A stretch of DNA of 64,000 nucleotides from an uncultured bacterium (GTDB lineage Bacteria > Verrucomicrobiota > Verrucomicrobiia > Limisphaerales > UBA8199): contig CAVVMW010000024.1 in the NCBI GenBank assembly GCA_963749495.1, positions 64,001 through 128,000 on the forward strand. The letters run 5' to 3'. Positions 21,001 to 24,000 of this stretch are shown piece by piece. Position 1 is the stretch's first letter, and each line of letters opens with the position of its first letter. Made by a program: the position numbers.

Positions 21001-24000
21001 TCCGTTTCCCCACGGGCCTGCCCGGGAACATGATCGATTTCTTTTCCCGCTCCGGCCTGTTCATCGTGGCCGTCAAGGTCCATCGCATGAGCGTGGCCGA
21101 GGCCGTCGAGTTCTACGGTCCCGTCCGCGAGACCCTGCGGACCAAGCTCAAGGACGTGGTTGCCGCCAAGGCCAAATCCGCCATCGAGAAAGAACTGGGC
21201 TTCAAGCTCGGCCCCGGCAGGAACAACAATTGGGCGACCTCCTTGGCCCCTCGTTTGGGGACAACCAGTTCGAGAACATCGTCCGCTTCATGTCCGGCCG
21301 CGCCCCCTCCGAATGCCCCCGGGGCGAGCAGGGCCGTCCAGGTTCCGAGAAGTGCATCGCCCTGGTCTATGAAGGCGTCGAGGCCGTCCGCAAAATCCGC
21401 GATATCCTCGGTCCCACCGACCCCTCCAAGGCGCCCCCTGGCTCGATCCGGCGCGAGTTCGGCCAGACCGTCATGGTCAACGCCGCCCACGCCAGCGACT
21501 CGCAGGACAACGCCCGCCGCGAAATGGACATTATCAAGGTCGGCGAGAACCACTTCCGCCAGATCGTCGAGGAGTTTTACGGGAAGGTGTAGCGCGGCTC
21601 CGGCCCTTTGGGCCGGCAGAACCTAGCCCAGGGCTGAGGCCGCCAGGCCGATGCCCTGGGACCATGCCCCCGGAAGATTCGGCGCCCCTGAAGGGGCGCC
21701 AGAGCCCTCTGGCGCCCCTTCAGGGCGCACGGCCCCGGTTTGACGTGAATGTTCATGCGGGGTCAACGTTGAGCTTTGTCCCGGAGGGACATCCCGAGAA
21801 TAGCCCGGCGCTTCAGCGCCGGGTACGATGCCCAAAAAACCCGCGTCCCGAAAGGGACGCCTGAAGCTCAGTCCCATAAATACCGCTCATCGTACTCGAT
21901 GCGATGCTTCTTGAGCATGGCCAGAAATTCCTCCTGGAATGTCCTGCGCCGATGGTGCTGCTCCTGGCCTTGGATGTAGCGAATAGTTTTGTCCAATACC
22001 GACACGCTCACGCTGAAGGCGCCAGACTTCTCCTGCCATTGGAAGCGCCGGTGCTCCGGGAAGCTCTCATGCACCCATCTTGAGGAGGCGCCCTTAAGGA
22101 GTTGGAGGGCTTGGGCCATCGAGAGGGTCGCGGGAAGCGACAGCAGGATATGGACGTGATCGGGCGTGCCGCCAATCTCGATGGCTTTCATCCGGTTCTG
22201 ACGGGCGATGCCGCCCAGGAAGGGCCAGAGCCGTTCCCGTAGCTCGGGCGTGATCAGGGGGCGCCGTTCCTTCGTGCTGAAAACGCAATGCAGCCAGGAG
22301 CTGATGTATGACACGCGGCTGATTCAACCGTCCCTTCGGGACGGAAGCAACACTAAAGGGGCTGTCCCGGCGCTGAAGCGCCGGGCTATTTTCAGGTGTC
22401 CCTCCGGGACAAAATCCCCTAGTCGCACGTCCGACACTTTTAATCGCACCCGCTCCTGGCACATCATGAACCAAGCATGAAGCGTTGGACGACTGCGGTA
22501 CGGCGGTGGCGGAAACTACTTTGTCAACAGCCCTCCCTCCAGAGGCGGGGATCGGCGCGGAGCGTCTCGATCAGCCTGGCATCGGCGGCGGGAAAGGCGT
22601 AGTTGGCTAGTTCGTCGGGGCCAATCCATCTGAAATCGGAGCAATCCAGCGGCTGCGGCTCGCGGGCCGTCAGGGTGCAGCGATAGAACCGCAGGTGCAC
22701 GGTCTTGCCGGGGTAGGCATGGGTCAGGCTCTGGACCAACTCCCCGACGGCGACCTCGATGCCCAGTTCCTCCCGCAACTCGCGTCCCAGGCAGGCCTCG
22801 AAGGTCTCGCCCGCCTCGCGTTTGCCGCCCGGGAATTCCCACAGCCAGCCCAAGTGCGCCTCCCGGTGGCGCTGCGTGATGAGCAGCTTGCCGCGGCGGA
22901 AGACCAGGCCGGCGGCGACCTGGATGGGCTGGGGAGAAGATGGCATTGTGTTGAATTCCTTAACTGCTGCGACCAAGCTGCTTGCCGGCCGCCAAGACCC
23001 TCGGGCGCGGCAAATCGAAAATAGCCAATGGCCAATAGCCAATGGCCGAGGGGCGCACGTCAGTCCTTGGGGTTCAGGCGCCTCGCCCGATGCTCTTGTA
23101 AATGAAGCCCAACCGCTCCATCTCGGCGGGGTCGAAGAGGTTGCGTCCGTCAAAGAGGATCGGGTGGGTCAGTGTCTTGCGGGCGCGCTCCAGGTCGAGT
23201 TTCTTGAACTGTTCCCACTCCGTTGCGATGACCAGGGCATCGCAGCCCTCGGCGACCTGGTTCATGTCCGGGACAAAGGTGACCTCGCGCAGGAGGGTCC
23301 TGGCCTTGTCCATGGCCTTGGGGTCGTGGACGCGCAGGTGGGCGCCCTCCTTTTGGAGGCGGTGGCAAAGCTCGACGGCGGGGGACATCCGGATGTCGTC
23401 GGTGTTTTGCTTGAACGCCAGGCCCAGGACGCCGAGGGTTTTGTCCTTGAGCACCCAGAGTGTGTCGGCGATCTTCTTGACGAACCGGTCCATTTGCTGG
23501 GCGTTGACTTTCTGGACCTCTTTGAGCAGCCCGAAATCGTAGCCGACCTGCTCGGCGATCTTGACGAAGGCGCACAAGTCCTTGGGAAAACAGCTCCCGC
23601 CAAACCCCAGCGAGGCCTCCAGGAACCGCCGCCCGATGCGCTCGTCCATGCCCATGCCGTTGGCCACCTCCTGCACATTGGCCCCGGTCGCCTCGCACAG
23701 GACCGAGATCGCGTTGATATAGGAGATTTTCAGCGCCAGGAAGGAGTTGGAGGCGTGCTTGATCAATTCGGCGGAGTTGATATCGGTGACGATAATCGGG
23801 GCCTTGAAGGGGGCGTAGATCTCCTTCATCGCGGGCACCGGCCGCTCCGAACGCACCCCGATCACCACCCGGTCCGGCCGCATCAGGTCCTCGACAGCGA
23901 ACCCTTCCCGGAGAAATTCCGGGTTGCTCACCACATCAAACTCCACCCGGACCTTGCAGTAGCGTTTGATGGTCTCGGCCACCTTGTCGCCGGTGCTGAC

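Follow-up and report, generated by a model that had tools for sequence, protein, structure and literature searches.

The Acido-Lenti-1 motif (Rfam RF01687) is most likely hairpin DNA located on both sides of a small IS200-like transposase gene and in many gene-less copies of the same arrangement; that is, selfish repeat DNA and not an sRNA gene. Its Rfam type is 'Gene; sRNA', and it is automatically annotated as an sRNA in thousands of genomes; these annotations would be corrected if the motif is read as repeat DNA associated with a transposase. We examined a stretch of 64 kb of DNA (hereafter the window) and followed its transposase locus into other loci and genomes. Taken as a whole, the explanation that we consider likely is that RF01687 modules form the arms of a unit carrying a Y1 transposase of subclass 1.2, that gene-less doublets are derived from this unit by deletion, and that a second layer of 270-nt elements is added to them. 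Our literature search found no paper linking RF01687 to a transposase. One paper speculated that RF01687 copies regulate protease genes of Tannerella, with no sign of mobile elements nearby there.

Inverted RF01687 arms bracket a Y1 transposase gene

At the Rfam gathering score (cut-off 37), the window contained three matches, all of them to RF01687. Two of these form an inverted pair, 589 nt apart from start to start, with the ORF of a 148-aa Y1 transposase between them, so that this claim of the initial annotation was confirmed by the Rfam and ORF searches. The features are as follows.

587..632, + strand: solo copy of repeat family B (CCGTGGAC stem; Rfam 37.5 bits)
21598..21735, no strand assigned: copy of repeat family F, abutting the left arm (comparison with the sequence flanking the C4 paralogue)
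21737..21776, no strand assigned: extension on the outer side of the left arm, differing in type from that on the right (G152 and G153 matches, alignments)
21777..21823, - strand: left arm, inverted RF01687 module (Rfam 37.1 bits; sequence)
21843..21860, - strand: inner hairpin 3 (GCGTCCCTTTCGGGACGC) followed by GGGTTTTTTG, right after the transposase stop codon (terminator-like site)
21868..22314, - strand: Y1/HUH transposase gene, 148 aa (ORF call; Pfam Y1_Tnp, 91 bits)
22328..22344, no strand assigned: inner hairpin 3' (CCGTCCCTTCGGGACGG), upstream of the transposase start (sequence and fold; conserved in doublets)
22366..22411, + strand: right arm, RF01687 module with hairpin 1 (CCCGGCGCTGAAGCGCCGGG), tag GCTATT and hairpin 2 (GTCCCTCCGGGAC) (Rfam 50.1 bits)
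22412..22451, + strand: outer 40 nt of the right arm, the last part being TTTTAATCGCACCC (22438-22451) (match to the half-element consensus)

As single-stranded DNA, the right arm folds into two hairpins (z -4.6), and the left arm, read on the + strand, consists of hairpin 2, ATAG (21800-21803) and hairpin 1. The tag at the hairpin foot is ATAG in the window and TTAG, ATAG or CTAG-like at other loci; by eye, the Lentisphaera and Koribacter seeds in the Weinberg supplement carry GUAG on the reverse strand. Judged by its sequence, inner hairpin 3 with GGGTTTTTTG looks like an intrinsic terminator, and hairpin 3 is retained in gene-less doublets. We propose that RF01687 would represent part of an arm of ~95 nt with three hairpins, namely the outer two together with an NTAG tag that is conserved at the base of hairpin 1, and that two such arms in inverted orientation would bracket the IS200-like subclass 1.2 Y1/HUH gene.

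The window right arm matches the half-element consensus, in which information falls to zero past position 86, and the doublets of the 270-nt family described below have TTTTAATCGCACCC, located at 22438-22451 here, as their terminal inverted repeat. The statement that the locus has no IS ends is wrong because of this terminal repeat. The outer left extension (21737..21776) is common to deletion-derivative doublets and to the copies in congeneric genomes; the matches in G152 and G153 start at query position 1338, corresponding to window position 21737.

Association of RF01687 with the gene across loci and genomes

We scanned all 80 kept orthologue loci at the Rfam gathering score and obtained 104 matches to RF01687 and none to any other Rfam family. 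A match was located at most 250 nt from the gene in 60 of the 80 loci, replicating the 30 of 40 reported earlier. The density of matches was 2.33 per kb in proximal and 0.038 per kb in distal sequence (61x), and the modal distance between gene and motif was 47-52 nt on both sides. When a looser regular expression for the hairpin plus tag was used, arms in the canonical orientation were detected at 72 loci (absent in 8/80) and on both sides of the gene at 49/80; the stem arm was identical on both sides in 38 of these 49, and the orthologue loci included 14 compensatory stem variants.

Among 150 other genomes of the window's phylum, for which the lists of motif-bearing and protein-bearing genomes were compared by hand, 12 contained both motif and protein, 4 the motif only, 2 the protein only and 132 neither. 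Coordinates placed the motif at the flanks of the gene in 6 of the 12 (G005, G007, G032, G035, G085 and G123, the last with two loci). Among 120 Acidobacteriota genomes, the protein was present in five of the six with a strong RF01687 match (E <= 1e-9) versus 20 of the 114 others, these 20 protein-only genomes being uninformative because the RNA threshold of E <= 1e-9 was too strict; in both surveys, related genomes do not represent independent samples. Overall, such genes between inverted three-hairpin arms were observed in Verrucomicrobiota, Acidobacteriota and Planctomycetota.

Repeat families, doublets and paralogues in the genome

In the genome-wide search for RF01687, 150 of 4174 first-look candidates were scored, of which 147 matched and 143 exceeded the cut-off, and the hairpin-plus-tag regular expression found 504 sites. 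The figure of 290 copies given in the initial annotation was not reproduced in this way. We counted 56 (-,+) pairs of family A with a 5'-to-5' distance of 99, equivalent to 144 from start to start, which indirectly confirms the doublet spacing of 144 nt noted before; the compensatory stems CCCGGCG/CGCCGGG and CCCAACG/CGTTGGG noted with it are also real. The gene lies exactly at the doublet centre, and 40 of the 81 A doublets can be aligned with the gene unit over all three hairpins on each side. Moreover, five doublets of this genome equal the gene unit minus window positions 21873-22299, with an identical junction in four of them. As part of the overall explanation that we hold likely, these alignments suggest that gene-less doublets are internal-deletion derivatives of the gene unit that multiplied.

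The genome also contains five paralogues of the same transposase subfamily, each bracketed by a repeat family of its own. Between lineages, the six copies (the window gene and its paralogues) are 39-49% identical, while lineage E comprises three copies at 89-90% identity. The lineage E and F genes are each bracketed by their own families, for which we counted 73 copies (family E) and 124 tags (family F); family F brackets the paralogous Y1 gene at G000:C4:428180-428632. The description of the window gene as single-copy accordingly holds for that exact gene and not for its subfamily, because these five paralogues exist, and the view that the other Y1 genes are all unrelated fails in the face of their bracketing repeats (E, F and G), of which E and F, the two families counted, are abundant. 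Family B is represented by 173 copies detected with the regular expression and by 352 exact tags, and no Y1 gene flanked by B was found in this 88%-complete assembly. Inside open 400-nt stretches, the repeats were rarer than random positions (A 42%, B 18% and C 27% versus 73%).

Class and mobility of the transposase

Pfam Y1_Tnp was the sole Pfam match of the 148-aa ORF (91 bits against a cut-off of 23), and the gene lies between an NDK-domain ORF and a NUDIX ORF; both statements of the initial annotation were borne out by the ORF and Pfam searches. The protein sequence contains D52-H-V-H55, W93-Q94 and Y113-I-Q-G-Q-E-Q-H-H121, and the corresponding DHVH, WQ and YIQGQEQHH motifs are kept in 76/80, 79/80 and 79/80 orthologue loci, respectively. 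The length is 146-148 aa in 76 of the 80 loci, with C-terminal tails such as YDERYLWD. The protein scored 63.2 bits against the NCBIfam IS200 model NF033573 (cut-off 55) and only 21.4 bits against the NCBIfam model REP_Tyr_transpos, NF047646 (cut-off 80). The closest solved structures were the ISDra2 and IS608 TnpA proteins, and no chain named TnpA-REP was matched in a PDB search at E <= 1.

We compared these properties with those of known classes, the motif definitions being those of Table 1 in PMC6006769. The length near 148 aa, the core-only architecture with a short conserved C-terminal tail, the motifs DH[IV]H, WQ and Y---Q--HH, and the low copy number with low identity between the copies within the genome are all those of TnpA-Y1 subclass 1.2. 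IS200/IS605 elements of subclass 1.1 occur as several near-identical copies whose end hairpins share one strand; in this genome, one copy of the lineage is present and the arms are inverted. The location of the gene between inverted copies of a genome-dispersed repeat is a RAYT property. However, the tyrosine motif is Y---Q--HH (YIQGQ) and not the Y---NP of RAYT/TnpA-REP class 2. From its sequence, the window protein fits the IS200-like subclass 1.2 and not a canonical RAYT, so that the naming of the enzyme as a RAYT is not upheld.

The unit of gene plus arms was found at three different loci in the congeners G000, G152 and G153. The ndk-NUDIX site is short in G152 and G153, and in G000 the position occupied by the unit in G152 is short. 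When the window NDK and NUDIX proteins and two neighbouring ORFs were searched by tblastn against the 80 orthologue loci, no match was found within 3 kb. The exact target site could not be defined from the empty sites because the intergenic DNA is too diverged.

These observations bear on the reading that the enzyme is a domesticated RAYT of a REPIN system, the product of a host gene that is present once, does not move, is inherited vertically and services only its REP doublets. Such a gene might be expected to show one full copy of the window lineage per genome, as is the case here, inverted arms like those of REPtrons, reading frames that are intact, as in 76/80 loci, and the 39-49% identity between paralogue lineages, which agrees with the low-copy, low-identity pattern of non-IS Y1 genes in Quentin 2018 (PMC6006769) and Bertels 2017 (PMC5581495). 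However, a vertically inherited gene is difficult to reconcile with three loci in three congeners and short sites at the alternative positions, with ndk or NUDIX lying within 3 kb in 0/80 orthologue loci, or with the three similar copies of lineage E, and the RAYT sequence signatures failed. We consider domestication unlikely, and this point of the initial annotation is not supported: each of three congeneric species has the unit at a different locus, and another genome is short at two of these sites.

A 270-nt subfamily with terminal repeats and target duplications

Among the 81 A doublets, 51 have a terminus on both sides, and 40 of these 51 measure exactly 270 nt. This 270-nt A subfamily is the commonest doublet type of the genome and accounts for most of the doublets with the 144-nt spacing. 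It has terminal inverted repeats of 14 nt or longer and is flanked by 9-bp direct repeats, which are exact in 9 cases and have at most one mismatch in 27. In a shuffled-partner control, the count of 9-bp repeats dropped from 33/81 A doublets to 5.8. Terminal inverted repeats together with a target duplication of fixed length, as in MITEs, were found in the 270-nt A subfamily alone: the terminal ends are missing from 15/81 A doublets, from C/D doublets and from G123 doublets, and no signal of 9-bp duplications was obtained for C doublets (3/25) or B doublets (5/18; control 2.2). To our knowledge, known Y1 transposition makes no target duplications. The terminal repeats and the 9-bp duplications indicate that the 270-nt form entered its sites through staggered cuts of both DNA strands, most likely those of a DDE-type transposase acting in trans, and this would form the second layer of our explanation. 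The RAYT mechanism proposed initially for the dominant doublets does not explain these features. In the 270-nt form, REP doublets would be travelling inside elements that make target duplications.

We searched the 88%-complete assembly for a partner transposase with matching ends of the GGGTGCGATTAAAAGC type and found none. At spacings of 300-12000 nt, three left-right pairs of termini were detected, 7.5-9.2 kb apart, and at 150-6000 nt the only pairs with 9-bp repeats were the doublets and one 354-nt element. There were 31 termini without an A core; two identical ones were rejected as the end of an element, both being located inside a longer repeat. The IS1 family was rejected as the partner, with sub-threshold matches only (Pfam PF03400 and NCBIfam NF033558) and the terminal repeat not nearby. 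At the isolated site C15:408093, two terminal repeats stand back to back and the core is absent.

Gene-bearing units were also scanned for terminal repeats and duplications. Elsewhere, 0/71 units had exact ones, and the three found at one mismatch correspond to the chance level; a second scan gave 0/66, and again 0/66 with slack (controls 0-1). A script scan of the G152 copy, the G153 copy and the window unit found nothing, although inspection by eye of the G153 copy revealed inverted ACTGTTCACGTG ends with a 9/10-bp direct repeat that needs a one-base offset and was missed by the script. Termini of the 270-nt form numbered 3 in G152 and 17 in G153 at <= 1 mismatch, and 180 in G000 at <= 2 mismatches, a looser limit that makes the G000 count not strictly comparable. 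How abundant the 270-nt form is thus does not track the gene, since G152 carries the unit yet has only 3 termini.

The repeats of this genome might be ordinary DDE-type MITEs, to whose spread the Y1 gene is irrelevant, the REP-like core being cargo of a MITE shell. The terminal repeats and 9-bp duplications of the 270-nt elements, and the numbers of these elements among congeners, which do not track Y1 presence, are consistent with this idea. However, neither an autonomous element with 270-nt ends nor a shell-only family was found in the assembly, and the doublets without such ends would be left aside. In addition, a MITE shell cannot explain the cross-phylum association, because the Y1 units elsewhere lack terminal repeats and duplications (0/71 and 0/66). 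We regard this possibility as quite unlikely. It is doubtful, and in our view very unlikely, that the Y1 enzymes of subclass 1.2 themselves make staggered cuts in double-stranded DNA and insert their hairpin-arm elements there, thereby producing the 9-bp duplications. We give this idea a small probability because our searches of the assembly revealed no other transposase with such ends, because the window gene unit has the 270-nt terminal repeat at one end, and because of the ends and direct repeat seen by eye in the G153 copy. If true, staggered-cut insertion would be an HUH/Y1 mode distinct from the single-strand peel-and-paste of IS200/IS605.

Proposed mechanism and the RNA interpretation

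In the explanation that we favour, internal deletion of the unit would give rise to gene-less doublets, which would then multiply. As in the case of IS608 TnpA and of TnpA-REP from E. coli, a Y1 dimer may bind the hairpin in single-stranded DNA and cut and rejoin beside it, and such reactions would move both the unit and the doublets. The IS608 mechanism is not simply transferable, because the arms are inverted here and the IS608 ends lie on one strand. The predicted substrate of the subclass 1.2 enzyme is hairpin 1 with its NTAG tag. From the initial reading of Acido-Lenti-1 as a DNA-level repeat, the tie between RF01687 and a Y1 gene at the doublet centre, across phyla, is retained, and the RAYT, its domestication and the doublet mechanism are not.

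The terminator-like hairpin is part of the arm, which may be transcribed, for instance into the terminator of a 3' UTR; this counts against our explanation. That Acido-Lenti-1 instead truly acts as an sRNA, or in cis as a regulatory RNA such as a terminator or stabilizer, with secondary proximity to the transposase, is highly improbable: the stem covariation behind the 'probably RNA' rating in Table 1 of Weinberg 2010, the terminator-like scores of hairpin 1 with CTATTTTC and of hairpin 3 with its T run, and the scarcity of repeats in open 400-nt stretches, which suits 3' UTR elements, all speak for it, but the covariation is equally expected of a DNA hairpin read by a protein, the copies form inverted pairs on both strands, the arms bracket the transposase gene in 72/80 loci across phyla, the doublets are apparent deletion derivatives of the transposase unit, many doublets have target duplications, and presence varies between congeners.

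Comparison with known systems

The 270-nt elements resemble DDE-mobilized bacterial MITEs in their size, their terminal inverted repeats of at least 14 nt, their 9-bp duplications and their lineage-specific expansion. They differ in that the interior is a REP-type doublet from a Y1 unit and in that the assembly yielded no parent insertion sequence. The gene-bearing units are similar to IS200 and to the TnpA-encoding elements of IS200/IS605 (IS608 and ISDra2), which are the best relatives in sequence and structure; the unit carries tnpA only, measures ~0.7 kb and shows no target duplication. In contrast, the end hairpins of IS608 have the same orientation on one strand whereas the arms here are inverted, and the near-identical multiple copies of IS200/IS605 are absent here.

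TIRtrons (TIRYT; Di Nocera, De Gregorio and Rocco 2013, PMC3733652), compared here by their text description, share with the RF01687 units the long inverted repeats flanking Y1 genes and the moderate abundance, often as dimers. According to the same description, they include Acidobacteria such as Koribacter versatilis, whose ORF1552 repeats might overlap with RF01687, and its text on TIRtrons makes no mention of target duplications. However, in the account of Quentin 2018 (PMC6006769), most TIRYT are equated with subclass 2.1, which has long proteins with an HTH tail.

With REPtrons and REPINs, as portrayed in Bertels 2017 (PMC5581495) and in citations of Nunvar 2010 and Ton-Hoang 2012, the units have in common the inverted hairpin repeats that bracket the gene, the inverted gene-less doublets scattered through extragenic DNA, a separate repeat family for each paralogue and, possibly, a conserved tag at the hairpin foot, NTAG here versus GT[AG]G there. 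Unlike the enzymes of REPtrons so portrayed, the enzyme here is of class 1 (Y---Q) and not of class 2 (Y---NP), and it fails the NCBIfam RAYT model; moreover, the arms have three hairpins, the unit changed locus within the genus, and terminal repeats and target duplications occur in one of the doublet subfamilies.

The closest correspondence is with TnpA-Y1 subclass 1.2 as outlined by Quentin, Siguier, Chandler and Fichant 2018 (PMC6006769), where the median length is 148 aa, the motifs are DH[IV]H/WQ/Y---Q--HH, the C-terminal tail is conserved, and copy number and identity among the copies of one genome are low. That outline lists the subclass as 'REP: no', states that secondary structures at the ends, as IS200 typically has, are generally missing, and names Cyanobacteria and Bacteroidetes as the main groups in which it occurs. 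Unlike the subclass as described there, the genes studied here are associated with inverted three-hairpin arms, of which tens to hundreds of copies are scattered in the genome; this association, if our explanation is correct, would provide a DNA partner for a Y1 subclass whose describers saw neither REPs nor insertion-sequence properties.

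RESULTS

Locus and arm anatomy

Rfam at gathering score gave three matches in the 64-kb window, each of them to Acido-Lenti-1 (RF01687). Two are inverted, lie 589 nt apart and enclose a 148-aa ORF, which is flanked by an NDK-domain ORF and a NUDIX ORF convergent toward the spacer. Rfam, ORF and Pfam results agree on this arrangement, an inverted pair around a gene matching only Y1_Tnp between ndk and NUDIX, and the observation made in the initial annotation is real.

Features in the window
587-632, + strand: RF01687 match, family B copy, 37.5 bits (Rfam)
21598-21735: family F copy abutting the left arm of the unit (GGCCC..GGGCC hairpin, CTAGCCCAGGGCTGAGGCC, GCGCCCC..GGGGCGC hairpin)
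21777-21823, - strand: RF01687 match, 37.1 bits (Rfam)
21868-22314, - strand: Y1/HUH transposase ORF, 148 aa, sole Pfam match Y1_Tnp (91 bits)
22366-22411, + strand: RF01687 match, 50.1 bits (Rfam)

Each arm of this unit consists of three hairpins. Outward from the gene these are the innermost hairpin 3 (CGTCCC...GGGACG), hairpin 1 with its 8-bp stem, a conserved tag, and the outermost hairpin 2 (GTCCC...GGGAC), and RF01687 spans the part from hairpin 1 through the tag to hairpin 2. The tag is ATAG immediately 5' of the hairpin foot on the strand reading into the element, and the GGCUA conserved in Rfam is the reverse complement of this tag. Folding as single-stranded DNA predicted all three hairpins (arm z-scores -3.3 and -2.8; 46-nt module, z = -4.6). 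The copy of hairpin 3 on the stop-codon side of the gene precedes GGGTTTTTTG and has a terminator-like score.

Copies and gene-less doublets in the source genome

The window corresponds to G000:C24:64001-128000 of the source genome (G000; 11.37 Mb, 31 contigs, 88% complete), for which Verrucomicrobiota MAGs are the nearest named relatives. We searched this genome with the RF01687 profile, and of the 150 candidates scored among 4174, 147 matched and 143 were over the cut-off, a lower bound that did not reproduce the 290 copies of the initial annotation. A regular expression (8-bp hairpin followed by GGCTA) detected 504 sites, with the following stem families.

Stem families of RF01687-type sites in G000 (regular-expression counts)
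Family A, stem CCCGGCG: 188 copies
Family B, stem CCGTGGAC: 173 copies
Family C, stem CCCAACG: 75 copies
Family D, stem CCCAATG: 12 copies

Family A formed 86 (-,+) neighbour pairs, of which 56 have their 5' ends 99 nt apart; this equals 144 nt from start to start and indirectly confirms the doublet spacing reported earlier. In an alignment of the locus minus its gene with 40 of the 81 A doublets (gene-less inverted arm pairs), the hairpin order was identical and the gene fell at the doublet centre. Five doublets correspond to the unit minus window positions 21873-22299 and retain 5 nt of the gene 3' end and the first 15 nt of the gene; the deletion junction is common to four and different in the fifth. 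These doublets indicate that the gene-less form arose from internal deletion and was then copied.

Family B carries CCGTGGACCGAGGTCCACGG and a CTACC tag, with GCGTCGC..GCGACGC hairpins alongside (exact tags, n = 352 in G000). Its (-,+) doublets are rare and direct-orientation repeats at 211-nt spacing are frequent. No cognate Y1 gene for family B was found in the G000 assembly.

Association of the motif with the gene

Relatives of the window gene numbered 474 confirmed, of which 80 loci (62-92% identity) were kept, mostly from Verrucomicrobiota with some from Blastocatellia/Pyrinomonadaceae and Planctomycetota. An Rfam scan of all 80, with 3-kb flanks where the contig was long enough, yielded 104 RF01687 matches and no match to any other Rfam family. 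RF01687 lay within 250 nt of the gene in 60/80 loci and within 150 nt in 57/80, at a modal distance of 47-52 nt on either side; its density was 2.33 per kb across the 38.6 kb nearest the genes vs 0.038 per kb across the 369 kb farther out, which bears out the claim that the motif accompanies orthologues in other species. Arms of the same kind were visible by eye in most of the 20 loci lacking an Rfam match, so that these hold sub-threshold copies. With a looser regular expression, a canonically oriented arm was present in 72/80 loci and on both sides in 49, the stem arm being identical on both sides in 38 of the 49; 14 stem variants with compensatory changes were observed.

We also compared, by hand, genome lists from two samples, both of which include related and thus not independent genomes. 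The first comprised 150 further genomes from the phylum of the window (RF01687 at E <= 1e-3, protein at E <= 1e-10), of which 12 had both, 4 the motif only (1-4 weak matches each), 2 the protein only and 132 neither; by coordinates, the motif lay directly beside the gene in 6 of the 12. Among 120 Acidobacteriota genomes (E <= 1e-9 and E <= 1e-20, respectively), 5 had both, 1 the motif only and 94 neither, while the 20 with the protein only say little because the RF01687 threshold was too strict. Dispersed RF01687 matches numbered 21, 29, 32, 13 and 4 in the genomes of loci L073, L056, L063, L065 and L003, and many of them form (-,+) pairs. The association between motif and gene is more than chance.

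Two loci showed other arrangements. At L029 (CAZUBG010000232.1, 2686-3815), four identical RF01687 copies surround the gene on one strand at ~219-nt spacing, a tandem array and not an inverted pair. In a same-phylum genome (L099, G007:C8:54658-58796), more than 10 RF01687-like matches run on one strand at ~153-nt spacing around a Y1 gene (57449-57889), an array-like pile-up of arms.

Movement and protein class

The congener genomes G152 and G153 carry ndk, NUDIX and the following gene in an order collinear with that of the window, and the gap between the ndk and NUDIX matches is 75 and 54 nt, respectively, vs 941 nt in the window. Elsewhere in both genomes there is a copy of the gene-plus-arms unit (window 21737-22412), at G152:C84 (88% identity) and G153:C10 (87%), with flanks unrelated to one another; the G152 flanks match G000:C1, where ~108 nt replace ~930 nt. 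Neither ndk nor NUDIX was found near the gene in any of the 80 orthologue loci. Judged from these comparisons, the unit has moved, and the description of the gene as domesticated and immobile is thus unsupported in the genus.

The 148-aa protein scored 63.2 bits against the NCBIfam IS200 model (cut-off 55) and 21.4 bits, far below the cut-off of 80, against the RAYT (REP-associated tyrosine transposase) model. Among solved structures, the transposases of ISDra2 and IS608 are closest to it, and no RAYT chain among solved structures matched at E <= 1. Its length and motifs (DHVH, WQ, YIQGQEQHH) fit TnpA-Y1 subclass 1.2 as given in Table 1 of Quentin 2018 (PMC6006769). In the orthologue loci, DH[VI]H was present in 76/80, WQ in 79/80 and the tyrosine motif in 79/80, with internal stops in 4/80.

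Paralogues and their repeat families

G000 holds 24 Y1_Tnp matches, six of them in the ~150-aa subfamily of the window gene. The proposed single-copy status consequently applies to this exact gene alone. Members of the subfamily are 39-49% identical between lineages, and three E copies are 89-90% alike. Every one of the six genes is bracketed by inverted hairpin modules with their own sequence. The tags of repeat families E (n = 73) and F (n = 124, inverted pairs at ~160 nt) each flank their own gene at about 85-122 nt, family F bracketing a paralogous Y1 gene at G000:C4:428180-428632.

A family of ~330-aa Y1 proteins (NHFH, YVHLNP) is multi-copy, near-identical and partly tandem (G000:C6:1027477-1029487, C14:44590-46403, C23:16685-17671, C15:52853-53839 and C18:22-735), and looks like the subclass 2.1 type with a C-terminal extension. 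No RF01687-type hairpin-plus-tag site was found within 1.5 kb of these genes. Two very long open frames of helicase-like sequence, 1571 and 1197 codons in length (G000:C12:525007-529719 and C5:280864-284454), contain weak interior Y1_Tnp matches (31-37 bits).

Elements of 270 nt with target duplications

In family A half-elements, conservation extends outward from hairpin 1 for exactly 86 nt and ends at the terminus TTTTAATCGCACCC. Both ends of the doublet carry this terminus in 51 of the 81 A doublets and a single end in 15, while the other 15 lack it; a length of 270 nt is shared by 40 of the 51. Direct repeats of 9 bp, differing in sequence from one doublet to the next, flank the two-terminus doublets and are exact in 9 and with at most one mismatch in 27; a scan gave 33/81, where shuffled partners gave 5.8, and the offsets clustered at the terminus. 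IS200/IS605 transposition is not known to make target duplications. No such ends or duplications were found on gene-bearing units of other genomes (0/71 and 0/66), and doublets of the same-phylum genome G123 end at hairpin 2. When <=2 mismatches are allowed, the terminus occurs 180 times in G000; under the stricter limit of <=1 mismatch it occurs 17 times in G153, 3 times in G152 and twice in G151. G152 and G153 possess the Y1 gene. In the window unit, only the right side carries the terminal repeat (22438-22451), and the outer part on the left matches the type of the deletion derivatives and congener copies. Searches of G000 found no autonomous element bearing TTTTAATCGCACCC-type ends.

At the G153 locus (L101, G153:C10:33500-35200, ~450-1240), a gene-bearing unit appears by eye to have inverted ACTGTTCACGTG ends, and CGAATTGTGG and CGAATGGTGG stand on its two sides; the script scans did not report this arrangement. 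The two flanking sequences could represent a target duplication of 9-10 bp around an element that carries Y1.

DISCUSSION

The core of the initial annotation, that RF01687 is a DNA-level repeat associated with a transposase, is well supported by its proximity to the gene in orthologue loci and by doublets that equal the unit minus its gene, whereas the labels 'RAYT', 'domesticated' and 'single-copy' fail as stated. Most copies in G000 spread as target-duplication-making elements, which counts against the simple reading. The 270-nt elements are most economically read as a REP doublet inside a lineage-specific MITE shell that a putative transposase moves; alternatively, the Y1 enzyme itself may move them.

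In Table 1 and the supplement of Weinberg 2010, the motif is graded 'y' (probably RNA) and not cis-regulatory; a February 2026 preprint treats it as a possible regulator, and an October 2026 preprint calls it of unknown function. Literature searches on Acido-Lenti-1, RAYT/REP and TnpA-Y1 subclasses found no paper linking RF01687 to a transposase. Quentin 2018 (PMC6006769) lists subclass 1.2 without REP, describes it as generally without IS200-typical terminal secondary structures, and states that it does not share insertion-sequence properties. Di Nocera 2013 (PMC3733652) reports Y1 genes flanked by TIRs in Acidobacteria, among them a repeated family of Koribacter versatilis that might be RF01687 under another name. 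In REPtrons, as described in the literature, one gene lineage goes with one repeat family, and the G000 paralogues follow the same pattern.
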